NCBI GenBank assembly: GCA_000004695.1
Contig: CM000151.3
Coordinates: 4,192,001 to 4,256,000, forward strand
Reading direction: 5' to 3'
Source: Dictyostelium discoideum
Taxonomy: Eukaryota
DNA: 64,000 bases
A program made the position numbers and the translations under genes. Within the stretch, counting starts at the first letter, position 1. Each line of letters opens with the position of its first letter. Under the pieces are notes generated by a model. That model made no database searches and was not told where the DNA came from. It saw nothing but the letters and a program-made list of their open reading frames with translations. This document shows positions 798 through 40,806 of the stretch, piece after piece.

Positions 798-982
<185 letters not shown>

Positions 983-2293: not shown

Positions 2294-2783
2294 TTTATTT
2301 ATTTATATATTATTAGAATTTAGATAATAGGAAAAAGAAAAAGAAAAAAAAAAAAAAAAAAAAAATTTATAAAAAAAAAACACAAGGACTAAAAAAAAAA
2401 ATAAAATTTAAAAAAAAATTATTTTAAAAAAAAAAAATTAAAAAAAATCTAATAACGAAGTATTTTTGGAAAATATCCAACTCTTTTTTTTTTTTTTTTA
2501 ATGGGATCATTATGATTAAAAAAACTTTTTTTACTATTTTTTATTTTTAAAATAAAATACAAATTTGCCTGGTAAAATGAAAATTCATATTTTGGGATTT
2601 TTTAGATCATTATCATATGGTAATAGACTTCCTGGTCGGCCTGATCAAAAATAAATAAAGATATTTTTGAAGATGCAAAGGATAATTTTATAAAAAAAAA
2701 AATAAAAAAAAAAAAAAATAAAGGATTTTATTTTAATTTAATTATATTAAACATAATAAAGAAAAATGATCGCTTTTGAGAAG

Positions 2784-2826
<43 letters not shown>

Positions 2827-2835
2827 GTATTTTGG

Positions 2836-2866
<31 letters not shown>

Positions 2867-3121
2867 ATATTGCGCAAATATATGTTTAAATAGAGAATTT
2901 TTTTGTTTTAATTAAGAACTTTTTTTTTTTTTTTTATTACATTTTATTTTTTATTTTTTATTTTTTTTTTTTTGTTAAAGTATTATTATTATTGGTGATC
3001 ATTTTATTTTTTGAGAAAAAAAAAAAAATATATATATAAAAAAAAAAATTTTTTTTAAACGTAAGAAACTATTTTTTTTTTTTTTTTTTTTTTTTTATGA
3101 TCTAATATTATTATTATTATT

Positions 3122-3378
3122 TTATTGTTTTTCAAACATAAAAGCTAAAGTTCTTCTTTTTGATTTCATGTATGGGTAAATAACATCTTGATGTGGGTGA
3201 TGTGGGACGATGAAATTCTTTAAACCATAAAAAACAACGAAAACGCTGGCATAGTTGATGAAAACAGCGGTTGGGTCACCTTTGAATGGGTTGAGATTTT
3301 CTATGAAATTGATAAATTATTGAGTTTTTATTAATTATAAATTGATATTAATTGTGCATTATAAAGAAAAGAGAGGAG

Positions 3379-3413
<35 letters not shown>

Positions 3414-3749
3414 GTTAGTGATATTATTAAATAAAAAAAAAAAAAAAAAAAAAATTATCTCCAAAGATTATGTTGTACAAAAAGTAATTATTTATTATCA
3501 TTCTTGAAATTTTTTATTTTTAATATGCAACCTGAAATTCGTTCTTTTATCATTGTGGTTTTTTATTTTTTTATTATTTTTTTTTTTTATTATTTTTATT
3601 TCTTTTTTTTTTTATTTTTTTTTTCCAAAAAAAAATAAAAAAAAATAATAAAAAAATAAACAAATTGAATTAAATAAATAAATTAATTAAAACATACCAA
3701 GGGCGAGTGTAATGAGTGATTTATTTTGAACGTGTTTGAATGCTAACAT
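3122..3749 (-). CDS. Small (76 aa) single-pass membrane protein, 2 exons; function unknown
   Basis: Exon 1 3749..3698 reads MLAFKHVQNKSLITLAL+G with a GTATGT donor. Intron 3697..3301. Exon 2 3300..3122 reads ENLNPFKGDPTAVFINYASVFVVFYGLKNFIVPHHPHQDVIYPYMKSKRRTLAFMFEKQ*. The GC-richer exon islands stand out in an AT-rich spacer. Confidence 0.4.
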
Positions 3750-4166
3750 TTTTGGGTATATGTAAATCTTATATGAAATGAAAAAAAAATGAAAAAATTT
3801 TAAAAAACAAAAAAAAAAAAAAAAAAAAAAAAATTAAAAAAAAAAAATTAAAATAAAATAAAATAAAATTTTTTTTTTGAATTTTTTTGAACTTCGAATC
3901 TATCAAATTCAACAAAGTTTTAAGAAATTTCACCAAAAAAAAAATTGAATAAATAATTTTATTTATTTATTTTATACATTTTATTTTTTTCATTCATTTT
4001 GTTTTTTTTTTTTTTTTCCAGGCTAAAATAATTATTTAAATTTATAATTATCTTATTTTTTTTTTTTTATTATTTTTTTTTTTTATTGAATTTTGAATAA
4101 TTAATGATTATTAATTATTAAAAATAGTGTATTGTAAAAAAAAAAAAATCACAATTATTATTATTA

Positions 4167-4197
<31 letters not shown>

Positions 4198-4885
4198 AGA
4201 AAAAAAAAAAAAAATCAAGCATGTGTAAGTTGTGAATTAATTAATAATTATGATATTATCAATATCTTCCCAGCAGAGGCTGGTATCTAATAGTATTTAA
4301 TTAAGTGTTTGAAAAATTCATTGTAAATTGTCCCATTTTTTTTCAATTTTTTTTTTTTTTTTGGCTTGGTGCCAAGTTGGGCACATTTTGAAAAAAAAAA
4401 GGAAAAAAATAAAAAAAAAAAAAAAAATTTAAACATATGCAGGTTTGATTATGAAAGATCACATATTTTACAAATAATTTTTTTTTATTTTTTTTAATTT
4501 TTTTTTTTTTAATTTTTTTTTTCATTTTTTTTTTTTTACGTCAATAAAAGGCTTAAAATTTTCTTTTTTTTTTTTTTTTTCATTTTCAAAAAACAAATCA
4601 AAAACACCCCTTCCCCAATTCCACTCAAAGATAGTTTTTAGATATTTTTCTAACAAAATATTTGTTTAATTTCATTACATATAATTTAATTATTATTTAA
4701 TTTTTTAATAAAAAAAGTTTTTCAAAATAAGCAATATCAAAGTCTATTTTTAAATATACTGTAAGTAAAATTTTAATTAAAAAAATGTTTAAAAAAAAAA
4801 TAAAACAAATAAAAAAAATAAAAAAAAATCACGTAGAAAAAAAAAATAAAAGTGTAAATAAGGAATATTTTTTTTCGTTTGGAAC

Positions 4886-5014
4886 AAAAAACACCTTATT
4901 CTGGCATTTTTAATTTTTTTTTTTGATTGGTCAAAAAAAACACCTTATTCTGACATTATTTTTATTTTTATTTTTTTTTTTGTTTCGTCCAAAAAAACAC
5001 CTTATACTGACATT
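4886..5014 (+). promoter_or_regulatory. Three tandem copies (period ~55 bp) of motif AAAAACACCTTAT[T/A]CTG[G/A]CATT, 300-430 bp upstream of the MFS transporter ATG
   Basis: Copies at 4886-4907, 4936-4957 and 4993-5014, read directly. Each sits in an oligo-T context, and the motif occurs nowhere else in the window. Confidence 0.5.
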
Positions 5015-5310
5015 TTTATTTTATTTTATTTTATTTTTTTAATTAAAAATTATATATATAAAAAAAAAAGTGATATTATTTATTTTATTACCTTTTTTTA
5101 AATTTAATTACATATATATCAAAAAATTTACAGTTATAATAGCATTTTCAATTCAATGAATATTATTTATTTCACTATCCCATAAACTATTCACCCACAA
5201 AAAAAAACAAGAACAAAAAAGTAAAAAAGAAGTAAAAAAAAGAAAAAAAAAAACAAAACAAATTTTTAAGAGAAGAAAAAACCAGAAAGTAAAAGAGAAC
5301 CACTGAGCCG

Positions 5311-7299
<1,989 letters not shown>

Positions 7300-7644
7300 G
7301 AAAAAAAAAAAAAAAAAAAAAAAAGAAAAATCTTTATCTAATATAGTGTAATACAAAAATATCTAAAAAAAAAGAAAAAAAAAATATCTGAAAAAAAAAA
7401 AGAAAAAAAAAATAGAAAAAAAAAAAAGAAAAAAAAAATAGAAAAAAAAAAAAAGAAAAAAAAAAAAAATAATAACAAAACCAATTAACCAAAACTTTTT
7501 TTCAAATAAAAAAAACAAACCTTCAAGTAAAAATAAAAAATAAAGATAAAGATTTATAAAAAAAAAAAAAAAATTATTTGTTTTATTTGTTTATTGTAAA
7601 CTTTTTTTTTTTTTTTTCTAAAAATTTTTATTTTATTTTTTTTT

Positions 7645-7688
<44 letters not shown>

Positions 7689-8190
7689 CATTTATTAATT
7701 ATTAAATATATTATTAAATATATTATTAAATGTATTATTTTCATCAAGTTTTTTGGTTATAGTTCAAAAGAAATTTGAACTGCAATCCAAAAACTGCACT
7801 AGAGGAAATAACAGATAAGATGGTTTTATTGGCATCTTAGTGATATACTTGAAGAAATCAAAACCAAAGATGATTTGATAGAATGTCGTAATGATGAATC
7901 ACTTGTTTATTTTTAATAAGTGATGATGAAACGTCATCAAGGAAATGTTCATTAGTTAAAAGTAAGCTTTTTTTTTATAAAATTAATAGATTTTTTTTTG
8001 TAAATTAAACAGATTTTTTTTTTTATGAGTTTACAATTCCACATTAATTATTTTTAAATAGAACAACATTCGTCATCAGTAATAGATTTTTTGTAAAATA
8101 AATAGATTTTTTTTTTTTTTTTTTTTTTTTCAGTTTTTTTTTTTCAGTTTATTAAATTACATTTCTTGTTTTTAATTTATTTTTATTTAT

Positions 8191-8192
<2 letters not shown>

Positions 8193-8254
<62 letters not shown>

Positions 8255-8273
8255 GTAATAATAATAATAATAA
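8193..8273. repeat. (AAT)n microsatellite abutting the start codon of the nucleotidyltransferase gene
   Basis: Direct read. The repeat ends 3 nt before ATG 8277. Confidence 0.9.
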
Positions 8274-8276
8274 ATA

Positions 8277-9101
8277 ATGATTCCAATAAAACATCAAAAT
8301 TTTATAAAAGAAATAATTGAATTATTAAAAAATGATTCAAGATTTGAATGTTTACTAGGGGCAGGATCAATGATTAATGATGAAATGGATGAACATTCTG
8401 ATTTAGACTTAATGTTAGTTGTTAAAAAAGAAGAATTTTCAGAGATTATGCTAAAAAGAAAAGAATTTGCAATTAAATTAAATGGTTATTTATCTGGATT
8501 TACAGGTGAACATGTTGGAGAACCAAGACTTTTAATTTGTTTATATGAAAGGGATAATGAAAATAATCAAAATGATTTATTATTACATGTTGATTTAAAA
8601 TTTATAACATTCGATTCAATGATAAAAGAATTAATCGAAATGCCAGTTGTATTATGGGAGAATGGTGATAATAATAATAATAATAATTCATCAATTAAAG
8701 ATTTAATAAAAAATTCAAATGTAAAATGGCCAAATAAAGAACCACAATGGTTTGAAGATAGAATTTGGATTTGGATTCATTATTGTTTAACAAAAATTCA
8801 AAGAGGTGAATTATTCGAAGCTATTGGTACGTTATCATGGATTAGGGATCAGGTTTTAGGTCCAATGTCAAATCGTAGAATTGGATTAAATCAAAGAGGT
8901 GTTAGAAAATTGGAATTAATTTCTGAACCAATTTCAACATTACTAAAAACAACAATTCCTTCAAATATTGATAAATCTTCATTATATGAATCATGTAATA
9001 ATTGTATTACAATTTATATAAATTTAAGAAATGATTATCCTCCAAATAATATTATTAAAAATATGCCATCAGTTTTAAATAAAATTTTAAATAATATTTA
9101 A
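8277..9101 (+). CDS. Intronless nucleotidyltransferase of the ANT(6)/AadK streptomycin-adenylyltransferase type (bacterial-like)
   Basis: A 274-aa uninterrupted ORF. The N-terminal NTase-fold motif is LLGAGSMINDEMDEHSDLDLMLVV (GS...D.D). The C-terminal block EDRIWIWIHYCLTKIQRGELFEAIGTLSWIRDQVLGPM matches the AadK block EFWMVSTYVVKGLARNEILFAIDHLNEIVRPNLLRM. This call is from memory of the family and has not been searched. Confidence 0.55.
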   Translation: MIPIKHQNFIKEIIELLKNDSRFECLLGAGSMINDEMDEHSDLDLMLVVKKEEFSEIMLKRKEFAIKLNGYLSGFTGEHVGEPRLLICLYERDNENNQNDLLLHVDLKFITFDSMIKELIEMPVVLWENGDNNNNNNSSIKDLIKNSNVKWPNKEPQWFEDRIWIWIHYCLTKIQRGELFEAIGTLSWIRDQVLGPMSNRRIGLNQRGVRKLELISEPISTLLKTTIPSNIDKSSLYESCNNCITIYINLRNDYPPNNIIKNMPSVLNKILNNI

Positions 9102-9190
9102 AATAAAAAAAAAAAAAAAATAATAATAATAATAATATATAAATTTTTATTTTATTTTTATTTTATTTAATTTTATTTTATTAATTTGTC

Positions 9191-9628
9191 TTAAATAAAA
9201 ATACCTCTAAAACATTTTTTACCACAACCAATTCTATAACAACATTTTTGATTCTCTCCATAAGCTTTACAATCACTATCTTTTGTACATTGGTCAGTTG
9301 GTGAACAATATATTTCAATTCTATTTTTCGGACAATTTAAAGTTGCAGTAGTTAATACAGATTGGACCAAATTTGCTTTATTACTTGGAACATTTGATGA
9401 TGAGGGTTTTACAAATCCAGAACTTGTTGTTGTTGTTGTTGTTGGAGTATTTGTTGGAGTATTTGTTGGAATATTATTTGATGTAGGAATATTCGTCGTA
9501 GTTGTTGTGGTTTGATTTGGATTTGTAAATGTTACAGATGTTACCCCACAAATACTCAAATTTATAAACAAACAATTAATTAAAAACAAAAAAAATAAAA
9601 TTTTAATAAAATTATTTAACATCATCAT
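9191..9628 (-). CDS. Secreted protein: signal peptide + Thr/Asn-rich linker + C-terminal WAP-type four-disulfide-core domain
   Basis: The ORF starts MMMLNNFIKILFFLFLINCLFINLSICG (signal), then has a (T/N/P)-rich stretch, then CPKNRIEIYCSPTDQCTKDSDCKAYGENQKCCYRIGCGKKC. That fits the WAP 8-Cys spacing CP-x7-C-x5-C-x5-C-x8-CC-x4-C-x3-C. Confidence 0.6.
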   Translation of the reverse strand: MMMLNNFIKILFFLFLINCLFINLSICGVTSVTFTNPNQTTTTTTNIPTSNNIPTNTPTNTPTTTTTTSSGFVKPSSSNVPSNKANLVQSVLTTATLNCPKNRIEIYCSPTDQCTKDSDCKAYGENQKCCYRIGCGKKCFRGIFI

Positions 9629-10892
9629 TTTTGAATTTTTTTTTAATTATTTAATTATTTTTTAAAACTATATATTTTGAAAAAATAAAAATTAATTTTT
9701 TTCTTTACTTGTTGTTTTTTTTCTTCTTTAAAAAAAAAAAAAAAAAAAAAAATAAAAATTATTATTATTTATTATTATAATAATTATTATTATTTAATTT
9801 TTTAAGGGTTTGGTCAATTGATGGATAAATAAATAAATATAATAAAAAAACAAAAATGGGTTGTCTTTATATAGAAAAACTATAAAATGTTTTTAAATAA
9901 AATTATAAATATGAAAAATAAAATAAACAAACAAAATAATAATAATAATAATAAAAATAAAAATAATTAAGGATCAGATTGGTTTCATTTATATGTTGAG
10001 TGAGTTAGTGAGAGTGTGTGGGCGGGTTAGTGTGTGTATTTGTGTTTAGGGAGAGAACCAAAACCAAAATAATAAAAATAAATAAAAAAAAAAAAAAGAT
10101 ATTTATGTATGTATAAGTGTGTGGATATGTGTGAAAATCAATTGTACTAACCTATATATACTTGTGTTTAAAGATTTATTTGATTTTTCAATAAAAGATA
10201 TATTCTAGATTAGGATATTTTTTGTTTTTTTTATACTTTTTTGGTATTATTTTATATATCACCCCCAATTTTTATTATTAAAAAAAATAAAACAAAATAA
10301 AATAAAATAAAATAAAATATTTTAAAAGATATATTATAAAAAATATTATATTTCCACCCTAGGGAAAATCAATTAAAAAATGAAAAAATTCAAAAACTGT
10401 GATATCATTACAAAGGTCATTTTTTTATTTTTTAATTTTTTTATATACAAATTAATATTACCTTTAGTAATAAAAATATAATTTGGATCTTTTTTTTTTT
10501 TTTTTTTTTTTTTTGTTTTCATTAAAATAATAAAAATAAAAATTAAATAAAAAGTGGTTATAAAACAATACAATCAATCAGTTTTTGAAATAAAAAATTA
10601 ACACATACAATTAGTAATAGTATAAATACAAAAACCCCACTTAAAAAATTATATTTTATTTTTTTATTTATATATCTTTTAACCACTTTACACGTATACA
10701 CATAATATTTTTTTCATTTTAAATAAAAAAAAAAAAAGAGAAAAATAATAAATGAAAATATTTTCTTTTAATTTAAATAATAATAATTTAAATATTATTT
10801 AAATTTATATTTATTTATTTTTTATATTTATTTATTTTTTATTTATATTTTTTTTTTTTATTTTTTATTTTTTATTTTTTTATTTTATTTTT

Positions 10893-11337
10893 TTATTTAA
10901 ATTGTTCAATATTTAATTTAAATTCAGAAAATAAATCATTTAAAGATAATTTAACTTGTTTATTATCTTCAGGTAAATCACGTTTTCTAACATTTAAAAT
11001 ATTTGTATCAATTTCTTCTTGACCAACTACAATGATATAATTATATTGAGAGACTGTAGCTTCACGAATTTTCTTTGATAATAATTTTGAATCATTTAAA
11101 TCTACATCAACATCATAACCAGCTAAATTAATTTTAGATTGAATTTCTTGAGCAAATTGATTAAATTTATTTGAAACTGGAATTACAATACATTGACGTG
11201 GTGATAACCAAAATGGCCATTTACCAGCAGTATGTTCCATTAAAATTGCCATCATTCTTTCAACTGAACCAAATAAAGCACGATGAATCATAACTGGACG
11301 ATTTAATGAATTATTGTTATTATTATCATTTATTTCT

Positions 11338-11369
<32 letters not shown>

Positions 11370-12989
11370 TAATCCACCAGAATATTCTAAATTAAAACGA
11401 ATTGGTAATTGAAAATCTAATTGAATTGTTGCACATTGATGATTTTTACCATTTGCATCTTTAAGATGAATATCAATTTTTGGACCATAGAAAGCACCAT
11501 CACCATGATTAATTGTCCATTTATCACCACAAAATTCAGTTAAAACTTGAGAGAGTGAAGTTTCAGCTTTTTCCCAAACTGATAATTCACCAAGATAAGA
11601 ATCTGGACGAGTTGATAATTCTAAATGAAAAGTGAAATTAAAGATTGTATAAACATATTTCATAAAGTCTAAACATTGTTTAATCTCTTCACGAATCATA
11701 TCTGGTGTACAAAAGATATGAGCATCATCTTGTTGAAAACGTCTTACCCTAGTGAGACCAGATAGAGAGCCATGGGTTTCATTACGATGTAAAACTCCGA
11801 AATCAGCAATACGCATAGGCAACTCTTTATAACTACGTGCTCTATGAGCATACATTAAACAATGGCCCGGACAATTCATTGGTTTTAAAGAGTATTGAGT
11901 ATGATCACATTCAAATGAAAACATATTATCCTTGTAATTATCCCAATGACCTGAAGTTTCCCAAAGTTTTTGATTATAAATATTTGGTGATATAACTTCT
12001 TGATAACCACGTTTACGATATTCCAAACGTAGGAATTGTAAAAGTTTATTATAAATCTTTGTACCATGTGGTAAAAAGAAACAACTACCAGGACTAAATG
12101 GATGAAAAAAGAAAAGTTCTTGATCTTTACCAATCACTCTATGATCACGTAATGCTGCAATCTTTTGAATCTCTACCCAATTATTCATTTGATCTTTACT
12201 TGGGAATGAAATACCAACAATACGTTGAAGTTCTGAATATTCTTTATTTGGTCCAACAACTGAACTATTTTTAATTAAATCTAATGATACAATTGAATTA
12301 CTTGAATCAATTGTTAAAAAATTATTTTTAAATTTAAATTCACCAAATTTTATAAAACTCTCCTCTTGATCTTGATCTTGGTCTTGTTGATCATTTTTTA
12401 AAATTTCAAATTTATCATTTCTTTTTACAATATATTCCATAATTTTTTTAATTTTATTTATATCATTATCTTTAATAGTTTGATTTTTATCTTTAAAAAA
12501 TATATCAATATAAAATGTACCTTGATTAATGTTATCGGCAGTTTGTGGATTTACTAAATGACCAAAATTAATTAATTCAATTTCTTTATTTTCATTTTTA
12601 AAATATTCCATTGTTGCACGTGCCAATACTAATGAACTTGAATTCCAAAAACAAATTCTTGCATCTGAATGTTCTTCAAAATTTAAAAATTCAATATTAT
12701 AATCTTTACCACTCATTTCAATGATTTCTTTCATTGAAATTAATTTATTACCATTTAATCTTGATAAAATCGATTGTTTACCAATTGTTTTATTAATTTT
12801 ATTAGCAATTGTTAATGGTGTTTGTTTATCTTCAAATTTAAATATTCTACCATCATTTAATTTAATATTACCACCACCACCACTATTATTAATGTTTGTT
12901 GTTGAAAAATATTTATTTATTAAATTAATTTTATTATTATTAAAATTATTAATTTTTTGAATTGATTTTGTTAATTTTAAAAATGACAT
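10893..12989 (-). CDS. Threonyl-tRNA synthetase (class II aaRS) with ~40-aa N-terminal presequence-like extension; single exon
   Basis: A 698-aa ORF. It has a TGS domain (IKLNDGRIFKFEDKQTPLTIANKI), the ThrRS catalytic blocks (FFFHPFSPGSCFFLPHGTKIYN, ETSGHWDNYKDNMF, RRFQQDDAHIFC, HRALFGSVERMMAILMEH) and an anticodon-binding C-terminus. The N-terminus MSFLKLTKSIQKINNF...KYFSTTN is basic and hydroxylated, so possibly mitochondrial. Confidence 0.9.
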
Positions 12990-13167
12990 TTTTTAAAAAT
13001 TTACAAAAAAAAATAATAATAATAATATATGTGTATAAATTATTTTATTTATTTAATTATTTTTAATTATTTTTTTTTTTTTCTGATTTCTTTTTTTTTA
13101 CAATTAACCACTATTATCAATTTGATGGTAATCGTTTTTTTGAAAATAAAAAAAAAAAAAACTTTAA

Positions 13168-13214
<47 letters not shown>

Positions 13215-13324
13215 CACTTTTTTTTTTTTTTCATTTTTTTTTTTTTTTTTTTTTAATTTAGTTTTTCATTTTATTGGTTTTATTTGTTTTTTTTTTTTTT
13301 TTTTTTTTCACTCATTTCACACTA

Positions 13325-15139
13325 ATGTCTGCTCCACAACAACAACATAATATACAACAACAAAATATACAACAAAATATACAACAACAACAACCACAAC
13401 AAAATGTACAACAACCTCAACAAGTAATAGGGCAACCACAACAACAACCTGTATATAAACCTGTAATTCAAATAAATAAGACATTACCACAACAACAACC
13501 ACAACAACAAATACCACAACAACAACAAATTTATAAACAAGCGCCACAACAAATATATAATCAAATTTCACCACCAATTCAACAAAATATAAATTCACCA
13601 ACAATTGTAAATAATACACCACCAACACCAGTAGTAACTACACCAACAACAACAACGACGACAACACAATCAAATTATTCAACAAATAGACCAAATATTA
13701 ATATAAATCCAGCATCACCGATATCTAGTACGACAATAGCATCACCTGTAACTCCTACAGTATTAACATCAACTCCACCAACAACAATAACAACACCAAC
13801 AACAACAACAACTACATCAACACCAACTACTACTTCAACCACAGTAATAACATCAGGTACTGGTCAACCAAGTTTAGGTTCAATAGAATCATCAATCGAG
13901 AGTGTATTAAGAAAGAATAATCTTGTAAATACAACAAACTTTTCACCAGTTCAAAATATTGGTACAACTACACCACCACCATCATCAACTGTTGTTGGAA
14001 TTACATCACCAACTCTTACCCAAACAACTTCTTCACCAATAACTGCAACTTCTATAACTCCAACTATAACTTCAATTCCAACTACCACCACCACCAATAC
14101 AACATCACCAATGTCTATTGGTACACCTTCAAGTACAACACCTGTAGTTTCAAGTGTTTTACCAACTACTCCAACTACTACCTCTGTAACTGCACCAATA
14201 ACAACTACACCACCATCATCATCAGTTACTACAACAACAACAACTATACCAACTACAACAACAGGAAGTAATAATAGTGTTCAAATAACAGGTACAAATC
14301 CAATGGTTTATGATAGTCGTCAAATGGCTAATAATAGTAGTAATATAACCTCAAATCCAACCTCTACTATTAATACTCCAACTACTACTACCACCACCAC
14401 AACAGCAACTTCAAATTCAACAGGCACAATTTTATCAAAACAAAAAAAAGAAAAAGAAAAAGAAAAAGAACGTCGTGAACGTGAAATTCGTGAAAAAGAA
14501 AATAAAGATCAACAAGATAAAGATAAAGGATTAAATAGTGGTGGTGGCGGTGGCGGTGGTATCGGTAATAATAATAACCCAAATAATTCAAATAACCCAA
14601 ATAATTCAAATAATCCAAATAATCCAAATAATATTGAACCTGAAGTATTGGGTAAAAGAAAATTAATTGAATTACTTCAACAAATTTCACCAAATGAAAA
14701 AATGGATGAAGATGCTGAAGATATTTTATCAGTATTGGCAGATGATTTTGTTGAATCAACCGTTGCATTTGCTTGTACATTAGCAAAACATCGTAATAGT
14801 ACAACACTTGAAGTTAAAGATTTACAATGTCATCTCGAAAAGAATTGGAATATTAGAGTGCCTGGTTTTGGTAATGTTGAACAATATAAAACCTTTAAGA
14901 AACCACATTTCCCAGAGAATCATAAACTTAGAGTTGCTGCAATGAAAAAATCAATCGCTCTAACTCAAGCTTCCTCAAGAAAACAACAAATTCGTGAATT
15001 TAAAGAACAACAAAAAGAATTAAAAGAACAACAACAACAAGAAGAATTAAAACAACAATTACAACAAAGTAAAAAACAAAAATTACAATTACAACAACAA
15101 CAATTACAACAACAACAACAACAATTACAACAACAACAG

Positions 15140-15170
<31 letters not shown>

Positions 15171-15208
15171 TACAACAACAACAACAATCACCTTCTTCAA
15201 AATTTTAA
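13325..15208 (+). CDS. taf12: TAF12 (TFIID subunit, histone-fold) with long N-terminal Q/T/P-rich low-complexity region and C-terminal poly-Q
   Basis: The histone-fold block KRKLIELLQQISPNEKMDEDAEDILSVLADDFVESTVAFACTLAKHRNSTTLEVKDLQCHLEKNWNIRVPGFG aligns residue-for-residue with metazoan TAF12 ([39 protein letters not shown]...TLEVKDVQLHLERQWNMWIPGFG). Start is taken at MSAPQQQ (13325). The ORF-track Met at 13274 lies in poly-T. Confidence 0.8.
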
Positions 15209-15636
15209 TTTAAAAAAATAATAAAAAATAAAAATAAATAAAAGATAAAAAAAAAAAAATAAAAAAATAAAAAAAAATAAAAAAAAAATAAAAAATGGTT
15301 AAAATAAATATAAAATATAAAATAAAAAAATAAAAAAAATAAAAAAAAATAAAAAAAATAAAAAAATAAAAAAAAGAAAATATGTATTACATATTATAGA
15401 TTATTAAAATAAAAATTTTTTTTTTTTTTTTTTCTTCATTTCTTTTTTTTTTTTTTTTCTAAACACTTTTAATTTTTTTTGGTATAAAAAAAAAAAAAAA
15501 AGTATTTAAATGGGAAGATCAAAACACACGACAATGCTTGTCGAAATGGTGTTGTTTACAATAAAAATTTTTGGCAATCAGTCAGAATCTTACAACTGAT
15601 GATGGTTTGGAAAAAAAAAAAAATTGAAAATTAAAA

Positions 15637-15683
<47 letters not shown>

Positions 15684-15807
15684 TGGATATTATAACGATA
15701 ATTAAATTGTTTTTTTTTTTTTTTTTTTTTTTTTTGTTTTTTTTTTTATTTTTTTTATTGTATTTTTAATTGTATTTTTATTATTATTATTTTTCAAGTA
15801 ATAAGTA

Positions 15808-15840
<33 letters not shown>

Positions 15841-15852
15841 TAAAATTAAAAA

Positions 15853-16799
15853 ATGAGTGAACAATTCAAAGATAATTTTTGGGTGTGTAATTTTAAAATT
15901 TTAAATTTTCCATAAATGGTTCTTAAACACTAACACTTTAAAATAAAACAAAACAAAAAAAAAAAAAAAAAAAAACAAAATTTTTTTTTTTAAACTGTTT
16001 AGGGACCAAATGGTTTCGAAACAATTGAAAAAAGAATGAATCAAGGTACTGAAAGTACAAGGTTATTCTTATTATTTTTAAAAGAAAGAGCAGCAATTGA
16101 AGAGAATTATTCAAAAAGTTTACAAAAATTATTAAAAAGTACATCACAATTAATTGAATATGGGTATGTTTTTTTTTTTTTTTTTTTTTTTTCCAATTGA
16201 ATACTTATTTTAATAATAAATAATAAATAATAAATAAATATTAGAACATTACGTGATGCATGGTATGGAGTTAGAGGTGAAGCAGAATCACTTGTAAGAG
16301 TACATCATGAATTAGGTCAAAAAATTGAAAAAGATATAGTTGCACCATTTTCAAAATTTAAATCTGAACAAAAAAAAGTAAAGAAAAATGTATGTATCCT
16401 TTTTTTTTTTTTTTTTTTTTCTCTCTCAACTCTATCAAATATAAAAATCATTTAAATAACTCTTATATTTATACATTTATATATATAAATAGTTTTTATA
16501 TGATGCATATAAATTAAATAAAGAGAGAAAAGATATGGAAAGTTCAATTACAAAAACTAGAGCAAAATATGATGATTATTCAAAACAAGCAGAAACAATT
16601 GCAATAACAATGGAAACTGCTAAAAATACAAAAACAGCAGCTGAAGTGGGTAAAATTCAATCAAAACTTCAAAAAATACAAAGAGATGCAAGTTCTGCTG
16701 AACAAGATTATAGAGATTCTGTTAATAAATTATCAATGTATCAACCAACTTGGGAAGATAAAGTTTCTTCAAATTATCATGTATGTATTATTTTTATAG

Positions 16800-16832
<33 letters not shown>

Positions 16833-17433
16833 TTATTTATTATTTATTAATTATTATTTATTATTTATTTTTTTTTAAAAAAAAAAGACATTACAATTAA
16901 CAGAAGAAGAAAGAATTGATTATATTAAAGTACAATTAGAGAAATATGTTGGAGCAATTAAATCAACAGTACCAGATACAGAGACAACAAATAGGAATTT
17001 AGTGAATGTTATAACACAAATTGATAAATTAGAGGATATACATTGTTTTGTTAGAGAGAGTAGAACTGGTACAGAGAAACCACCACCACCACAATTCATT
17101 TCATTTGGTGGTAAATCGTCATCTGATTATATTCAAAATAAAGCATCATATTCAGCTCCATTAACTTCAAGTGTTAGTAGTAATAGTTTAACGAGTAGTT
17201 ATAATTCAGCGACAACAACACCAACACCAGCACCACGTTCAACTCCAATTAATTTATCTAAAAAGAAACAAGCAAAAGCATTATATGATTATGTTGGTAG
17301 TGATGCTACTGAATTGGACTTTTTCGCCGGTGATATAATTACAATTTTAGACGAAGATGAATCTGGTTGGTTTAGAGGTGAATTGGGTGATAGAATTGGT
17401 TTATATCCTTCAAATTATTGTGAACCAATTTAA
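15853..17433 (+). CDS. F-BAR (FCH) domain + C-terminal SH3 domain protein (PSTPIP/Cdc15-like), 5 exons
   Basis: Exons 15853..15882 (MSEQFKDNFW; GTGTGT donor), 16003..16163, 16245..16389, 16493..16780 and 16888..17433. Introns use GTATGT donors and TTAG/ATAG/AAAG acceptors, and phases are consistent. The N-terminus GPNGFETIEKRMNQGTESTRLFLLFLKERAAIEENYSKSLQKL has the F-BAR pattern. The C-terminus ALYDYVGSDATELDFFAGDIITILDEDESGWFRGELGDRIGLYPSNYCEPI is a canonical SH3. Confidence 0.8.
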
Positions 17434-17870
17434 AAAAATAAATAAATAATAGATTATTTTTTAAAAATTTAAAAAATTATTCAAAACATTTTATTTTATT
17501 TTTATTTTATTTTTTTTTATTTTTTTTTTTTTTTTTTGGTATAAAAACTTTTTTTTATTTGTGTGGAATTTTGTGGGAAAAATTAAAATTTACCATATGG
17601 TAAATCTAATTTTATTTTTGGTGTTTTTTTGAATTAATTAATTCTTTCTTTTATGATAAAACGGTTAAGAATTTCATCAATTGAAGGATCACCAAAATTT
17701 TGATATATGATTGTCTGATTTAAGAATTACAGGTGGTAGAAGAATTAATTAATTCTGGTGGAATTTTGATTTGAAATATTGTTAATTTTGAATAAAGTTA
17801 TTATTTTTATTCACCCCATAAAACATTACCATTTGGAGTTGAGATTCTGGATCTTTTTGAAAAAAAAAAG

Positions 17871-17912
<42 letters not shown>

Positions 17913-18020
17913 TTTTTTTTTTTAAATTTTAATAAAATTTTTCTCACATCTTTCTTTTTTTTTTTTTTTTTTATTTTATTTTTTATTTTTTTAAAAAAAA
18001 AAAATAATAATAAAATTACA

Positions 18021-19418
18021 ATGAAAATAATTATATTACCAAATTATATTCAAAATAAAATTATTAAATTATTATGTTATAATTATAATTTAATAAATCA
18101 ATCATTTAAAATTGAATATATTGAAAATTCAGATTTTTATGATTCAGTTTATTATTTAAATGATTATAATATTGAAAATTTAATATTTGTAAATTGGTAT
18201 TGGTTTAAAACTGTATCAGATAATATTAATACAATAATAAATTTTAATTATAAATTAAATAAAAGATTAAATTTTAATCAATTTTTAAATCAATTTAAAA
18301 AAAAATCAACAATCTTTAATCAAAATCAAAATCAAGATCAAAATCAAAATCAAAATAATAATGAAAATAATAATGAAAATAATAAATATTTGTTTATAAA
18401 TAATAATAATATTGAAATTTTAATATTAGATTTTTCATATTTATTTAATTGTTTTAAATTATTTATTTTAATGTCAAGATCAAAAATTTTTAGAAAATTA
18501 TTAAATGAAAAAATTAAATTTGATTATCCAAATTTAAAAATTTTAAAAATTAATAATTCAATTAGACAATTTCAAATTGATTTAATTAATTCAATTGATT
18601 TTTCAAATATTGAAATTAAAAATTATTCAATGTTAAAACAAACAATTGATATAATTAGTGGTAGTAATGATGATGGTAAAAGTTTAAATCAATTAAATTT
18701 AATTGATATTGAAAATAAATTAAAAAGTAAAGTAATTAATAAAAAAAAAGAAAAACAATATCAACTTGGTTTAATTTCATCATCAGGTAGTTCATCATCA
18801 TCATTAAATTTTCAAAACTTTGATCCTATTAAATTATCAAAAAATATTAAATCTGTTGATAATTTGAATTTAAATGGTGGTACATATGAATTGATTTCAA
18901 ATACAATTAGTCAATTAAGTTTTGTTAGAAAATATTGTTATGTAGATTCAAACATTTTTCAATCAATTTATAATGATGAAAAATTTAATTCAAACAATTG
19001 TTTAATTAATAGTGAATCTTTTAATATCAATTTTTTAACTTTTGAATCTTTAGTTTCAATTTTAAAGATTTCACCAAATTTAAAAAAAATAAATTTAAAA
19101 TTTTGTTTTCATCATTTAAATTTTATTTTTTCAAATATTAATCACGATGATGATGATGATGAAAGAAATCAATTTAAATCATGTTTATGTACACCAACAA
19201 ATCAAGATTCAAATGATATATATTGGAATTTCATTTATAATTATATTATAAATAGTAAAACTATTAAAAAAATTATATTTGTTCAATATTGTAATGCTTC
19301 AAAACTTGTTCCAAAAGTTTCAAAATTTTGTAATAACTTTGAAAAAATTTTTAATTTATTAATTGAAAATAAAAAATTAAAAGTTTATAATTTACCATTT
19401 TTAAAAAATAAATGGTAA
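18021..19418 (+). CDS. Asn/Ile/Lys-rich hypothetical protein (465 aa), possible leucine-rich-repeat-like C-terminal half; single exon
   Basis: Long ORF with start taken at MKIIILPNYIQNK. The upstream Met in the track is poly-T-derived. Repetitive L..L..I..N patterns are present but no firm domain. Confidence 0.45.
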   Translation: MKIIILPNYIQNKIIKLLCYNYNLINQSFKIEYIENSDFYDSVYYLNDYNIENLIFVNWYWFKTVSDNINTIINFNYKLNKRLNFNQFLNQFKKKSTIFNQNQNQDQNQNQNNNENNNENNKYLFINNNNIEILILDFSYLFNCFKLFILMSRSKIFRKLLNEKIKFDYPNLKILKINNSIRQFQIDLINSIDFSNIEIKNYSMLKQTIDIISGSNDDGKSLNQLNLIDIENKLKSKVINKKKEKQYQLGLISSSGSSSSSLNFQNFDPIKLSKNIKSVDNLNLNGGTYELISNTISQLSFVRKYCYVDSNIFQSIYNDEKFNSNNCLINSESFNINFLTFESLVSILKISPNLKKINLKFCFHHLNFIFSNINHDDDDDERNQFKSCLCTPTNQDSNDIYWNFIYNYIINSKTIKKIIFVQYCNASKLVPKVSKFCNNFEKIFNLLIENKKLKVYNLPFLKNKW

Positions 19419-23707: not shown

Positions 23708-25739
23708 TTAATTGGTTTTATTAAATAGTAGTTCAAATTTTGAATGAATTTCAATATTGTCAAATTTAAGATAATTTCCAATTTTAATGAAAAGTGATTT
23801 ATTGAAAATAGTTGGATAATTATTTAAAAATAAAATAAAAGACATTTTATCATTTTCAATTAAGCAACAACATAAAATGTGATGTGGAATGATTAATTTA
23901 ATTTTTATTTTTAATTGGTTTTCAAATACATTTAGAGGGAAACCATTTGATATTTCAAGTTCAACTGAATCCTCACCTATTACCAAAAAACCTTTTTTTA
24001 TTTCTTCTAAGATATGATTTGAAATAAAATTTGATATTGGTGGAGAAAAATAACCATTTACTTGGATAGATGGATTAATTTTAATTGCTTCTTTTATCAT
24101 TCTAATAAATGTATTAAAATTATCAATCATATGAATATTATCAAAATATGAGTTTTTAATTTCATCATTTATAATAAAAAATTCTGGACCTGAAAGTGCA
24201 ATTAGAAATAATGAGAAAATACCTGGATGATTAACACCATTTTCTTTAGATATTTTAACCATTTCATCAAATGAAATTATCGATGCTTTTCTATTTATAC
24301 TTTCCATTAATATTTTATATTGATTAACCAATTTTGAACTTTTTAAATAAATGTAATTATAATTAAATTCAGAAAATAATGAATCTTTATAATATTTAAA
24401 AACTAAATTCATTATTTTATCATTTGTAATTGATCTGAAAATAATTTTACAACTTTTTTTTTGCATCGATTGCATTTGCTTTGAAAACTTCTTCAATTAA
24501 GTATAAATTACAAGTTAAAAGAATATTTTTAATTATATCAATTTCAAAAGATGATCCTCGAAGACTTGAATTACCATTTGATTTGATTTTATTATTTCTT
24601 ACAATTTCAAGTAACCGACTTGTATAATTCTTTAAGATTTCTAAATTATTTCTAAATGTTACTTCCATTGTAAAAATTTTTTTGGCACTAAGATTAACCA
24701 TTGATTCATTTTCAACCAAGTTTTTAAAATATTCATTTAAATAAAAATGAAATTCAAGATCATGTTTTGAATTATATAATAAATATTTTTCATTAATTAA
24801 TTCTATTATTTTTTTCTTTTGAATATTAAAATTCTCTGGGAAAATTAAATGATACATTTGAAGTGCCACGACATTTTTACATTGAACAATTATGGTAATC
24901 CATTTATTAAAATCACCAAAATTTATTTGACCTTCTCCACTACCACAAAATGATGTATTAGAGAATAAAAATTTGAAATAATTTCTATTTTTAAAATCAT
25001 TTTCTCTAATGAATTGGATTGTTTTGATAATTTCTTTCTCACTTTTTGAAAGATCACCTTTGTTTATTGAATTGGCAATTCCTCTAGCTAAGGATTTCTC
25101 TAAGTTTTTACAATTTAATTTATAAAAAAGATTTTTATAAATTTCATAAGCTAAAAATTTATTCCTAAAAACTGTCAAATAGAGAGATTTTGTATTATTA
25201 TCTTGATTGTTTGTGTTACATGGAATATTTTTTATTTCTATTAAACTTGAATTTGATCCAATAAGTATCTCCTCTGAACTAAAAGATAAAACTCCACCAT
25301 CAATCAATTGATTTATTGAAATATTTAAAAAGTTACTGATCTTCTTAAATTTTTTATTATTCTTTGATAACTCTATAGTTGTAATAGGAATTGAAACAAA
25401 TTTAAAAATACTATTTATATAGGTTAAAGTCTCTTGAGTGAGATTTAATCTTTGATTTTCCCATTGAAACATATGTAAATAAACTATACAATTTGGAATC
25501 AATCCATCTTTAAATTCTCTTTTTCCAATGTAATTGAAATAAAATTGATTATTATCATTTCCATTAAAAAATTGTTGGTTTTGGTAACAATCAAAACACA
25601 AATCATTGAAAACAAAAATAAAATCAATTTCAGAAACTTTTTTTGGAAATGAATCAGATGTTAATATATATTCACCAACATTATAAATAAAAATATTCTT
25701 TATTAAATTAAAAGAACCATTCTTTGATGTTGACTCCAT
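23708..25739 (-). CDS. Hypothetical ~690-aa protein encoded by two overlapping ORFs (25739..24447 and 24496..23708) that fuse if one A is removed from an A9 run; frameshifted gene or pseudogene
   Basis: The upstream ORF ends ...AIDAKKKL* at an A9 run (plus-strand T9 at 24464-24472). The downstream ORF in the -1 frame continues SCKIIFRSITNDK... Reading A8 gives one continuous frame. No intron fits, because the gap is under 20 nt. Confidence 0.5.
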
Positions 25740-30431: not shown

Positions 30432-31274
30432 TTAATTTATTTATTAAAAAAAAAGTATTAAATGAAGAAGATTCAAATATTAAAGTTAAATCATTATTAG
30501 AAAGTGGATTAGGTAAAGGTCAATTTTTAATATTAAGATATTTATTTGAATTATTAAATGCAGTTTCAATCAATTGTAATGTTAATTTTATGAATTATCA
30601 AAATTTAGCAATTTGTTTTGCACCATCTTTAATTCAATCATTTGATTTATCTTGTTATGATGTAATTGAAAGATTAATTGAAAATTATCATTCTATATTT
30701 GGTGTAGTTGTACCTGTTGTTGATAATTCTTCAAATGTTTCTTCATCATCTTTAGCACATCCAATAATTGGTGGTAAATCCGAAACAAATGTTTCTTTAA
30801 ATAATTTAACTGTAACAATATTAGATCATGGTGATATAAATAATAATTCAAATAGTAGTAATAATAATAATAGTTCATCATCATCATCACCATATAAAAA
30901 ATCACCAAAGCCATCACCAAAATCATCACCAAAACTTAATAATAGGAATAGTATTAGTCCAAAATTAAGCTCAAGTACTAGTTTTAGAAAAAGTATCAAT
31001 TTAAGTAGTAATAGTATAATGATTTCAGATGAAGTTCAACAAGAGCAACAGAACCAACAACAACAACAAGATGAACAACAAGATGAACAACAAGATGAAC
31101 AACAAGATGAACAACAAGATGAACAAAATTCAAATAGTACTAGTATTAATACATCAAGTAGTAGTATAACTAGGCCAAGAAAAGGTTCCACTGTACAATA
31201 TTTAAATAGAATTAATACTTGTCGTAGACCAAGTTCTTGGACAAATAATAATAGAATTAAACAACAACAACATC

Positions 31275-31305
<31 letters not shown>

Positions 31306-32495
31306 TCAACAACATCAACAACAACAATCATCTTCATCTGAATCAAATTCAAGCCTTACGTCAAGCCCTCAAAAGAGATTAAATAGTGTAAATGGTTTAG
31401 AATCATATGAAGAGGGTAAAAATGTAAATGAAATTTATTCTTCATTAAAAGAAGAATCTTCAAAACTACCTAAAAAGAGTTCATTAAATCGACAAATGAC
31501 AATTGTAAATAGTAATAATATAGGTAATGGTGATGAAAAGAATAGCGATTGTACAACAAGTGATGAAGATGAAGAATTAAAAATTTCAAAACCAATTATA
31601 AGATCTACAAGTGTTAATGAAATATTAAAAGAAACCAATGATGATAATAATAATAATGATCAAATAAACAATAGTAATAGTAGTAATAATATACCTAAAA
31701 CAACAATCACTACTACTACTAATAATACAACTACTACAAATAATATTTCACCAATAGTTAAATCAAAATCACAAATAATAACATCTTCAGCTAAAGTAAC
31801 ACCAACACCAACTCCAGCACCAATGCAAACGTCATCATTTTTATCAACAAAACAAACAAATTCACCATCATCATCATCATCACCATCATCAACAGTATCA
31901 TCTACATCTTCATCTCCCTCTTCATCCTTATCTTCATCAATTGATAATAAAACAATGTCAAATGTAAACTATAATAGATTTCAACCTGCAAATAGAACTG
32001 TTTCATCACCGAATGTTAGAAACTTTTCAGTTCCTACAACAACTACAACCACTTCTATTGGTTCAAATAGTTTTGTTTCACCAAGATTTATTGGAAAGAG
32101 AACAACTCCAAGTATTTTTTCACCAAGAAAGCAATCCATTTGTAAACCTAAAAATACCACCTCATCATTGAGTAGTTCTTCATCTAATATTTCAAAATCT
32201 ACAAATTCAACTCCAACTCCAACTCCTGCACCAATACTTACTTCAACACTTTCTGTAAATTCTACTTCAAGTAGTAGTAAATTACAAGAGAAAGCATTAC
32301 CAACTAAAACTACATTCATTACACAAACTTCATCACCTTTATTATTACCACAGCCATTAACTTCAACATCAACATCAACATCAACATCAACATCAACATC
32401 AACATCAACATCAACATCAACATCAACTACAATACCAACACCAACACCAACAACATCCTCATTTAAATCAAATTCATTCTCAACCTCAAATGATA

Positions 32496-32579
<84 letters not shown>

Positions 32580-32896
32580 TTACTTCTCCAACTATAGTAT
32601 CTTCACCATCTTCACCAACATCACCAATATCACCAACATCATCAACATTTATAAAAGGTCATTCTCATTCAAATTCATTATCTCAAACTCCATCCTCATC
32701 ATCTTCTTCACTTGGAAATAGATTAACAGCACCAGGAAGACAATTAAATCATACAAATTCTACATCATCTTTAATATCAAAATTTAATCAAATTGATACA
32801 CCTTCAGGAATTAATCAAGGTTGGAAAGGTGGTGTTGTAGTTCAAAAGAAACAAGATCCAGTTAAAAAATCTTTGGCTATTTTTGAAAAAGAATAA
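29285..32896 (+). CDS. RhoGAP domain protein (~1140 aa) with long Ser/Thr/Asn/Gln-rich C-terminus, 2 exons
   Basis: Exon 1 29285..30266. Donor GTAAGT at 30267 (phase 1), acceptor AG at 30454-55, exon 2 30456..32896. The RhoGAP domain spans the intron: ...LLVPGIFRESANAMELQRLSQLFEKGGDIDLSEYTDPHCIGGLLKLYFREKPIPIFPYDL...NYQNLAICFAPSL. It contains the GIFR arginine finger. The intron carries a (TTTA)n repeat. Confidence 0.85.
30340..30445. repeat. (TTTA)n microsatellite inside the RhoGAP intron
   Basis: Direct read. Confidence 0.9.
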
Positions 32897-33003: not shown

Positions 33004-33428
33004 TAAAAAGATCTTAGTATAGATATTTTTTTTTTTTTTTTTATTGAATAATCAAATCAAATAATATTATTTTATCTTTGTGAACAAAGAATTAATTTTT
33101 TTATTTTATTTTTATTTTTTTTATTTTTCCTTATTTTTTGAGAGTTTCTGTAAATGTAATAAAAATGTTATGTATAAATTAAAAAGTTATTAAATTTATA
33201 TTTGAAACTAAAAAAAAAAAAAAAAAAAATTAACCACAATAATAATAAAATTATATAACCCCAAAACAAATACAAATTTCTTTCTTCTTTAAGAATTTTT
33301 TTATTTTTTTTAAAATCAATTATTTTGATTATATAAAAAAAAATAAAATTATTTAAACAATTTTTTTTTTTTTTTTTATTATTATTTCTAAAAAAACATT
33401 TTTAAAATATTAAAAAAAAAAAAAAAAA

Positions 33429-34163
33429 ATGAAATTAATAATTTTAGTAATAATATTTTTAAAATTAATATCAATTAATGGATTTGAAAATATTGATGGT
33501 AATAATTTTTTAATTGAAACAGTTGAAACAATTTCATTTAATGGTAATTTTAATTTTTCAAATAAATTTGATAAAATCAATGGTGATAGTAGTATTTGTT
33601 TTTCAGGAGTTGGAGGTGGTTTTAATGTTTTGGAATTTTCGTCGGGTTTAGGAAATTCTGAAATTTTCATTGTAAAAAGTGAAGAAGACTATTACTTTGA
33701 AGAATATGATCACTATGAAACTTGTAAACATCAAATTGGAATTACAGATTTACATGTTAAACCAAATCAAAAATTAAGAAATAAAACTTTTTATTTCTTT
33801 GTACAAGAAGAATATTATTATTCAGGTTGTTTTAATATTTATTTAAAAAATTGTGATATTAAAACAGATCAAAAAAATGATTCAATTTCTTATGAAATTC
33901 AAATTTTAAAAATTCATTCACCTTTAAATATTAGTCATTCAACAATTCCATCATTTCATATTTTCTTCACAATTTTCTTTATTTTAGTTTTTGGTATTTC
34001 AATTTTCCATATTTATATTTTAAAACAAAATAAAATTAATGGTGATATAATTACATTGTTTTCATTTATTTTAATAATATCAATTGTTGGTCATTCAATT
34101 TATCTTTCAAATTGGAATTTTCAACTTAAAAATATGGTGAAATTAATGGTAGAATTTTATTAG
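33429..34163 (+). CDS. N-terminal part of a candidate 7-TM receptor-like protein: signal peptide, ~170-aa Cys-containing ectodomain, TM1-TM2
   Basis: The ORF reads MKLIILVIIFLKLISINGF (signal), then a hydrophilic domain with C..C..C..C, then two hydrophobic helices. It ends at TAG 34161 with no clean in-frame GT donor upstream. Confidence 0.45.
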   Translation: MKLIILVIIFLKLISINGFENIDGNNFLIETVETISFNGNFNFSNKFDKINGDSSICFSGVGGGFNVLEFSSGLGNSEIFIVKSEEDYYFEEYDHYETCKHQIGITDLHVKPNQKLRNKTFYFFVQEEYYYSGCFNIYLKNCDIKTDQKNDSISYEIQILKIHSPLNISHSTIPSFHIFFTIFFILVFGISIFHIYILKQNKINGDIITLFSFILIISIVGHSIYLSNWNFQLKNMVKLMVEFY

Positions 34164-34214
34164 GTAATAGTAAGTTTTTAATTAAATTAAAAAATTATTT
34201 AAAATTATTTAAAA

Positions 34215-34889
34215 TTGTTTTTAAAATTAATTTTAAATAATTTTTTTTTTACTTTTTATTTTTTTTTAGTTTTTACTTTTACATCAAATTCATTATTTTC
34301 ATTATTAATTATAAATATTAGTCAAGGTTGGGGATTAATATCAGATTTTGGTAAACGTTTTGCAATTATTTTTAATTGTGCAATATTTTTTTCAACTGAA
34401 ATATTAGGTTTAAGTGCTTATTTAGTTGAATCAAATAGTCAATTTTATGGTGGTGAATATAGAAATCCATTTAAATCAAATGTTGGTTATGTTTTAATAG
34501 CAATTCAAGGTTTAACAATTTTTTATTTTATTTTTTCAAACAAAATCTTTTCAAATTTGATTTCAACAGATCAATATCAACAATCATTTTTGGTTAAATT
34601 TAAAATAATTTTTTCAATTTGGATAATTTCAATTCCAATTTCAGAAATAATTAGTATTTTCATTGTTGACAATAATTTTAGATTCAGTTTATTTAGTATT
34701 ATTAATGATTCATTTAATTTAATTTTCTATTTATTAATAATTTATATTTATCATCCATGTAAAAGTAATATTTTAGTAAAAAGATTAAATAGTTATTATG
34801 ATGATGGTGATGAATTATCAATTAATCAAAATCAATCACAACAAAAAAGTATTGACGAAATTAATCTTGAAAATTTATATAACAAGTAA
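34215..34889 (+). CDS. C-terminal part of the same candidate 7-TM protein (five further TM helices + acidic tail); true exon probably starts near the TTTTTTTAG acceptor at 34270
   Basis: Same frame (mod 3) as 33429..34163. Five hydrophobic segments. The first 18 codons are AT-rich and intron-like, with a polypyrimidine tract and AG at 34268-69. Confidence 0.45.
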   Translation: MFLKLILNNFFFTFYFFLVFTFTSNSLFSLLIINISQGWGLISDFGKRFAIIFNCAIFFSTEILGLSAYLVESNSQFYGGEYRNPFKSNVGYVLIAIQGLTIFYFIFSNKIFSNLISTDQYQQSFLVKFKIIFSIWIISIPISEIISIFIVDNNFRFSLFSIINDSFNLIFYLLIIYIYHPCKSNILVKRLNSYYDDGDELSINQNQSQQKSIDEINLENLYNK

Positions 34890-35110
34890 AAAATCAATAA
34901 TAATAATAATTTCAATTCAATATGATTTTATTTTTATAAAATTTAATTTTTTTTTTTAATTATTATTCAATAAAAAAAAAAAAAATTATCTTTATTTTTA
35001 AGAGATTGTTTTATTTGTTGGTTTTTTTTTTTTTTTTTTTATTTGGTTTTTTTTTTATTTCTTTTTTTTTTTTTTTATTTTTTTTTTTTATTAAATTGAT
35101 TTTGTTTTTA

Positions 35111-38916
<3,806 letters not shown>

Positions 38917-40210: not shown

Positions 40211-40806
40211 TTAAAAACCATGTATCTTGATAGATGGTTTTTGGGAGATCTTCTCTTCAATTAAAAAGAGAGCGATTTCTTTTCTTTTATCTCCTTGGAG
40301 TTTTATAATCATACCAAGGTTTTCTTCTTCTACTATGTTTCCATTACAATTTAATGATTTCTTAAGATGTTTCAAAATTTTTTTCAAGTCAATCTTAGGT
40401 GGTAATCCTTCTACGGTTGTTACTGCTTTACGGCCGCTTCTTTGGAAAATACGAATATGGACGTAACTGATACCTGAGTCTCCACCTAAATTAGAGTCTT
40501 CAGCAAATGGGTCTATTTTTTTTTTAAAAAAAAAAAAAAAACAAGATTATAAAAAAAAAAAAAAAAAATTAGTAAATATAAAGGAAAATATAAAAATAAA
40601 AAGTAACTATTCTAATTATTATATATATGTATATTTGTTTTAATATTCTCTTATTGGTTTTTTTTTTTTTTTTTCTTTCATATTTTTAAACTTTATTTTC
40701 TAAATATAATGCGGAGAAAAAAAAATAAAATAATAATAATAAATAATTAGATATAGGATTTATTTATTTACTTACCAGCTGAGTTAAGATTTTGAATTGA
40801 GCTCAT
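40211..40806 (-). CDS. Translation initiation factor eIF1 (SUI1), 2 exons, 110 aa
   Basis: Exon 1 40806..40776 reads MSSIQNLNSA+G with a GTAAGT donor. Intron 40775..40513. Exon 2 40512..40211 reads DPFAEDSNLGGDSGISYVHIRIFQRSGRKAVTTVEGLPPKIDLKKILKHLKKSLNCNGNIVEEENLGMIIKLQGDKRKEIALFLIEEKISQKPSIKIHGF*. It is collinear with human eIF1 (MSAIQNLHSFDPFAD...IHIRIQQRNGRKTLTTVQGI...LQGDQRNNICQFL...KVHGF). Confidence 0.9.

Follow-up and report, generated by a model that had tools for sequence, protein, structure and literature searches.

The architecture of GOLD-domain seven-transmembrane (GOST) proteins has been described (PMC9711517, PMC11605061), and the family dates to stem eukaryotes (PMC12716839). 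In their seven-transmembrane (7-TM) domains the members of the GPR107/108/TMEM87 group stand apart from GPR180/TMEM145 (PMC12716839). Localisation to Golgi and endosomes and a role in the trafficking of membrane-associated cargo are reported for animal members (PMC9711517, PMC11605061, PMC12716839), and reports of molecular evidence for G-protein signalling are lacking throughout the GOST family (PMC12716839).

The locus analysed here lies within a window of 64,000 nucleotides from Dictyostelium discoideum (contig CM000151.3, positions 4,192,001 to 4,256,000). From the letters of the sequence alone, the original prediction had singled out two open reading frames (ORFs) that share a frame and together resemble a 7-TM receptor, of the GPR107/108 type or of another amoebozoan 7-TM family, interrupted by a stop codon. 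The two ORFs are the parts of one two-exon D. discoideum gene, whose intact product is a type-I-like membrane protein of 453 aa. Within the GOST family this product belongs with GPR180/TMEM145, and not with GPR107/108 (LUSTR). The gene appears split because one T is missing, most likely through an error of base-calling or assembly.

One gene behind two open reading frames

ORF1 spans positions 33429-34163 of the forward strand and codes for 244 aa from an ATG start to the TAG at 34161-34163; ORF2 follows on the same strand at 34215-34889, is listed with 224 aa and ends with the TAA at 34887-34889. Both occupy the frame in which the position is a multiple of three. The window has about 20% GC and contains poly-N and poly-Q ORFs. 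Using a GC content of about 16%, at which some 10% of random codons are stops, we estimate the odds of an open run of 244 codons arising by chance at about 1e-11, and ORF1 and ORF2 are thus regarded as real coding sequence. The translation of ORF2 contains no in-frame ATG, and therefore ORF2 is no independent eukaryotic gene. The ORF list and the three-frame translation confirm that no canonical splice joins the two frames across the TAG at 34161. Indeed, the GT dinucleotides 5' of the stop lie at 34086, 34090, 34137 and 34149, and only the one at 34090 (GTCATT) is in frame, in agreement with the earlier remark that a canonical in-frame donor is missing upstream of the stop. The sole acceptor preceded by a poly-T tract is the AG at 34268-34269 (TTTTTTTTTAG). 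A canonical donor, GTAAGT, is present 3' of the stop, at 34170. A splice from there to 34269 connects exon 2 with frame 2 of exon 1, so that a frameshift must lie between 34128 and 34161.

Comparison with the corresponding locus of the D. discoideum assembly GCA_054883475.1 (contig locus L002, 99.9% identical around the gene) locates this frameshift. Over the 1.7 kb from 33300 to 35000 the two sequences differ at two positions only, namely the substitution G34044A (D209N) and one T missing at 34138, 32 nt 5' of the donor at 34170, where the window reads GGTG and the comparator GGTTG. In the alignment, ATATGG-TGAAATT of the window stands opposite ATGATTG in a second locus, L001, and ATGGTTG in L002. 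Upstream of 34138 the gene is read in frame 0 (KNMV), downstream of it in frame 2 (EINGRILLGN), and L002 encodes an intact protein of 453 aa (P0007). A frameshift within the A5 run at 34128-34132 was also considered and was rejected, the orthologue alignment keeping KNMV in frame 0. The resulting gene model comprises the following features:

33429..34169, + strand: exon 1, from the ORF list, the alignment of orthologues P0001-P0007 and gene structures that reproduce the orthologue proteins exactly
33429..33482, + strand: putative signal peptide, a hydrophobic N-terminus (MKLIILVIIFLKLISING), from hydropathy and a helix in the AlphaFold2 (AF2) model
33510..33917, + strand: ectodomain, a GOLD-like beta-sandwich of about residues 28-163, from AF2 strands and Foldseek
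33942..34133, + strand: TM1 and TM2, from Kyte-Doolittle segments 170-200 and 202-228
34137..34139, + strand: frameshift site, G-T-G against GTTG in every comparator, from DNA alignments with L001, L002, L004 and L005
34161..34163, + strand: premature TAG, from the three-frame translation and the repaired model
34170..34269, + strand: sole intron, 100 nt, GTAAGT...TTTTTTTTTAG, phase 1, with position and phase kept in orthologues
34270..34889, + strand: exon 2, from the PF10192 match on ORF2 and identity to exon 2 of L002

Exon 1 covers the protein from the putative signal peptide through the GOLD-like ectodomain, TM1 and TM2 into the beginning of TM3, and its last base opens a split codon; exon 2 supplies the rest of TM3, TM4 to TM7 (to about 34748), a cytoplasmic tail and the stop codon. 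The loss of a T from GGTTG shifts the reading frame, and the shifted frame then meets the TAG at 34161, whose bases belong to TTA-GGT (Leu-Gly) in the correct frame. The 100-nt intron in turn brings exon 2 back to the genomic frame in which exon 1 starts: since its length is 1 mod 3, the offset is cancelled by the deletion of one nucleotide, so that the two ORFs come to lie in the same frame. The intron had been anticipated as an AT-rich interval ending with TTTTTTTTTAG at 34269, which is correct, but its extent is 34170-34269 and it starts at GTAAGT instead of a weak donor. Of the two ways out that had been offered for the stop codon, a weak donor or a sequence error, the weak donor is unused and the error is the one retained.

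A homologue search with the provisional repaired model recovered intact proteins of 450-456 aa from four Dictyostelium taxa, D. discoideum (three assemblies), D. cf. discoideum (two), D. citrinum and D. dimigraforme, three orthologues of the set coming from cluster members. All of them read straight across the frameshift site with NWNFQLKNM[V/I]E[I/L]NGRILLGN followed directly by IFTFTSN. In four orthologues from three species the intron was mapped by requiring that removal of one GT...AG segment yield exactly the deposited protein. Each of the four has an intron of the form GTAAGT...TAG at the same position and in phase 1, with a length of 100 nt in L001 and L002, 87 nt in D. citrinum (L006) and 75 nt in D. 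dimigraforme (L007), and a GC content of 5-9%. The intron of the window is identical to that of L002 (about 5% GC); compared with L001, the intron body is far more diverged than the exons. The frame is intact in L001, L002 and L004-L007, whereas canonical splicing of the window leaves it interrupted. Pairwise dN/dS values among the orthologues, calculated by NG86, which probably overestimates omega at such base composition, range from 0.27 to 0.5, and therefore the gene is under purifying selection elsewhere.

Seven Logan contigs, assembled from independent sequencing runs, code for the exact ORF2 product. In SRR28564543 and SRR26869267 the site reads GGTTG and the upstream ORF continues across it in the correct frame, the five further contigs being listed as similar. 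These two runs (L004 and L005, corresponding to window positions 33412-35040) represent a third haplotype with an intact frame, carrying both F121L and D209N; F121 and D209 of the window are the ancestral states, common to the outgroup species. The flanking genes are syntenic in all four species examined. Upstream lies a RhoGAP-like gene for a large Ser/Thr/Asn-rich protein (30590-32896, + strand; 1140 aa in L002), and downstream one for a bre1-like protein with a coiled coil, poly-Q and a C-terminal RING (35111-37171, - strand; 1080 aa in the L002 annotation).

Affiliation to the GPR180/TMEM145 branch

ORF2 alone matches PF10192 with an E-value of 5.4e-16 (59.3 bits, profile positions 72-223). 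In the repaired protein the match rises to 75.1 bits, with residues 180-403 covering the whole profile (1-223), compared with 63.8 bits (profile 1-223) for a naive fusion of the two ORFs; the gathering scores are 23.7 bits for PF10192, 25.2 bits for PF06814 and 28.1 bits for PF21892. The membership in GPR180/TMEM145 rests on this full-length match, which reaches 79 bits in the orthologue P0001 (96% identical). On the other hand, PF06814 (LUSTR/GOST_TM) gave no match at E<=1 with either ORF or with any fused model, and the suggestion of a GPR107/108 lung-7TM protein is not upheld, even if it pointed to the right neighbourhood, both branches being part of the GOST group. Likewise, PF21892 (TMEM145_N) found no match at E<=1 in ORF1, and none in the orthologues P0001, P0003 and P0004. 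It is reached, with 30.9 against the required 28.1 bits, by P0013, a homologue linked to the family by profile search (2e-31).

Among 1.84 billion representative proteins, a profile built from four orthologues has only 30 matches at E<=1e-3. PF10192 is present in all 22 of the aligned homologues, and TMEM145_N in addition in 14 of them. Weak matches to PF06814 occur in two of the 22 (best 4e-5), which indicates a distant relationship to LUSTR. The dictyostelid proteins share 15-27% identity with the other profile-search matches and form a small and very divergent subfamily. The protein is a divergent but otherwise unremarkable member of a family that is known from across the eukaryotes.

The fold was predicted with AF2 for P0001 from the alignment of 22 sequences (pLDDT 75.4, pTM 0.65). 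The model consists of an N-terminal helix, a beta-sandwich (residues 31-166) and seven long helices (175-410), so that a GOLD-type beta-sandwich passes directly into a 7-TM bundle, as is characteristic of the GOST architecture. The N-terminal helix (residues 2-23) precedes the beta domain, and the hydropathy scan, made with a 19-residue Kyte-Doolittle window and no dedicated predictor, has its maximum of 2.18 at the N-terminus (residues 1-22). The ectodomain of about 150 aa contains four cysteines that are invariant among orthologues (C57, C99, C134 and C142), two of which, C99 and C142, are conserved in at least 90% of the 22 family members. TM1 and TM2 correspond to the model helices 175-203 and 209-238 (P0001 numbering), where profile positions 1-71 of PF10192 fall. 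Hydropathy, orthologue alignment and model thus agree with the topology originally put forward, a signal peptide (here a hydrophobic, signal-like segment), a cysteine-containing ectodomain and 2 + 5 transmembrane helices.

Searching the PDB with Foldseek placed four cryo-EM structures of human TMEM87A (8ctj, 8hsi, 8htt and 8kb4) on top, with E-values from 2e-8 to 3e-7 over about 430-450 aligned columns. This fold alignment extends over the full length at an identity of only 11-12%; TMEM87 belongs, however, to the PF06814 branch (GOST_TM/LUSTR), which the Dictyostelium protein does not match. With GPR107 and GPR108, also defined by PF06814, the overall GOST architecture is shared. Foldseek also matches the N-terminal GOLD domain of GPR180 (9fow, TM-score to target 0.58), a crystal structure on which the N-domain model superposes. 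The order of putative signal peptide, GOLD-type beta-sandwich and seven helices is likewise common to GPR180/TMEM145. In contrast to these, the N-domain of the Dictyostelium protein is without PF21892, homology in this part being drawn from the fold and from intermediates such as P0013, and the copy in the window has a broken reading frame. When the family profile was searched against PDB sequences, nothing significant was returned, the solved structures being linked by fold comparison only.

Origin of the missing base

The window aligns with L002 end to end from 23397 to 44932 at 99.55%, with 21 mismatches in 21.5 kb, and from 1 to 19160 with L003, on the contig that also holds L002, at 99.36%. 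Over these 40.7 kb, three single-base indels that break an ORF (at about 616, at about 24454 and at 34138) stand against about 30 substitutions relative to GCA_054883475.1, and in all three the broken copy is on the side of the window. The remaining indels are nearly all differences in the length of long homopolymers or microsatellites. Three frameshifts for some 30 substitutions far exceed natural loss-of-function polymorphism, and for this reason we favour a sequence error as the cause of the missing T, with a probability of about 0.7. A build-up of frameshifts at such density in the laboratory is not credible, given the AX4 mutation rate of 2.9e-11 per site per generation (PMC3466296). Moreover, AX4 lines share 1916 candidate differences from the reference, for which errors in the reference, differences of the ancestor clone or mutations during initial growth have been given as causes (Saxer et al. 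2012, PMC3466296). Were the window the AX4 reference, about one discrepancy per 10 kb would be expected from this number.

The other differences from this assembly are of several kinds. At about 616 (+ strand), CAAC in L003 is CAC in the window; an 872-aa gene (L003 98-2762) loses its last 42 or so residues, and the frameshifted product ends in a tail of four residues and a stop. At about 24454 (- strand), the window has A9 in place of A8, by which a single-exon ORF of 676 aa (23708-25739) is split into 430 and 262 aa; this ORF is intact in L002 (312-2342), has orthologues only in close Dictyostelium relatives and shows no Pfam domain. Wherever long A/T homopolymers differ between window positions 1-44932 and L002 or L003, those of the window are longer, by 1 to 14 bases, which suggests that the other assembly compresses such runs or was made with a different sequencing technology. 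Four substitutions within 7 nt (40303-40309; T>G, T>A, T>G, T>C against L002), at the 3' end of a SUI1/eIF1-like gene (L002 16769-17362, - strand), could reflect either a local error or a complex event on a small scale. The ORF at 8277-9101 (+ strand) is identical to AX4 DDB_G0274701 (Q555M2), on the 8.48-Mb chromosome 2, and the protein is identical in ACTFIT. UniRef100 lists two identical D. discoideum entries for it; this may point to a location within, or close to, the duplicated segment of AX4 chromosome 2.

The T could instead be truly absent from the sequenced strain, which would then carry a loss-of-function allele of very recent origin, on its way to becoming a pseudogene; we regard this as unlikely, if still worth considering. 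Its product would be at most a 244-aa fragment with the putative signal peptide, the GOLD domain, TM1-TM2 and seven foreign residues, without a functional 7-TM bundle. The site itself speaks for a real deletion and against an error, as it is a TT dinucleotide outside any long homopolymer and no classic error hotspot. The protein collection holds no AX4 protein for this locus, yet does contain AX4 DDB_G0274701 from the same window; either the deposited AX4 sequence has the break or no gene model was ever made, and this absence fits a frameshift in the AX4 reference, be it real or an error. Furthermore, the family is small and evolves fast, with dN/dS up to 0.5 and few relatives in the profile search, and its loss might be tolerated. 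Against a genuine allele, the gene is otherwise undamaged, its intron and exon 2 being identical to those of the intact L002, the frameshifts of the region are all on the side of the window, and no independent data set carries the deletion. Indeed, the truncated ORF1 product has no exact match in any assembly or Logan run, Logan coverage being thin here with its seven contigs, and neither KKKKK+ORF1, the form expected on Logan contigs, nor the 430-aa piece of the broken gene nearby is matched exactly. In favour of a strain-specific deletion, by contrast, the Logan contigs and L002 represent haplotypes other than that of the window (D209N, with or without F121L).

Explanations beyond a sequence error and a young null allele retain, taken together, a very small share of the probability. 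One of them holds that the gene is intact as it stands and is spliced from the weak donor GTCATT at 34090 to 34269, giving a protein of 426 aa. Of every possible GT/AG pairing near the stop, this is the only one that keeps the frame, the weak donors at 34137 and 34149 being out of frame. Such a splice would nevertheless drop 27 residues (GHSIYLSNWNFQLKNMVEINGRILLGN) that every orthologue conserves, half of TM2 among them, it lowers the PF10192 score to 54.2 bits (profile 21-223) with the start of the profile missing, and it bypasses GTAAGT, which all four orthologues checked use and which is also present at 34170 here. The 34090/34269 splice was consequently rejected on conservation and Pfam score, and we consider it highly improbable. 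Still more remote are two independent genes, programmed frameshifting or stop-codon readthrough, for which nothing speaks beyond the existence of two ORFs. Not only does ORF2 have no start codon of its own, but the orthologues are single genes and one Pfam domain extends over both ORFs, with profile positions 1-71 in ORF1 and 72-223 in ORF2; on these sequence grounds, separate transcripts for the two ORFs would be very unlikely. As to recoding, a slippery heptamer is absent at ATGGTGAAATT, the frameshift is missing in the 99.9%-identical strain and hence is no conserved recoding signal, and readthrough of the TAG would run into several more frame-0 stops within the intron.

Possible function and consequences for D. 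discoideum

By analogy with the animal proteins, the GOLD domain may face the lumen or the exterior and bind cargo or a ligand, and the 7-TM part might serve in Golgi/endosomal trafficking rather than as a G-protein-coupled receptor. A trafficking function is suggested here by distant animal homologues, the identity to solved structures being 11-14%.

For annotation, the preferred reading, a T lost by error, means that the locus is to be described as a single gene whose two exons lie at 33429-34169 and 34270-34889, the T being restored at 34138, and not as two ORFs, as a weak-donor splice variant or as an empty locus. Since the protein collection holds no AX4 protein for this locus, the commonly used proteome of D. 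discoideum may lack a GOST member that is present in wild isolates and in sister species. In addition, the two neighbouring frameshifts suggest an indel error rate of about one per 13 kb in this region, which matters for gene models. Should the missing T be genuine after all, which we hold to be the less probable case, the sequenced, probably laboratory, strain would be a natural knockout of a GPR180/TMEM145-type GOST protein; with wild isolates keeping the gene under purifying selection, the two would offer a strain pair for studying this family in an amoeba.
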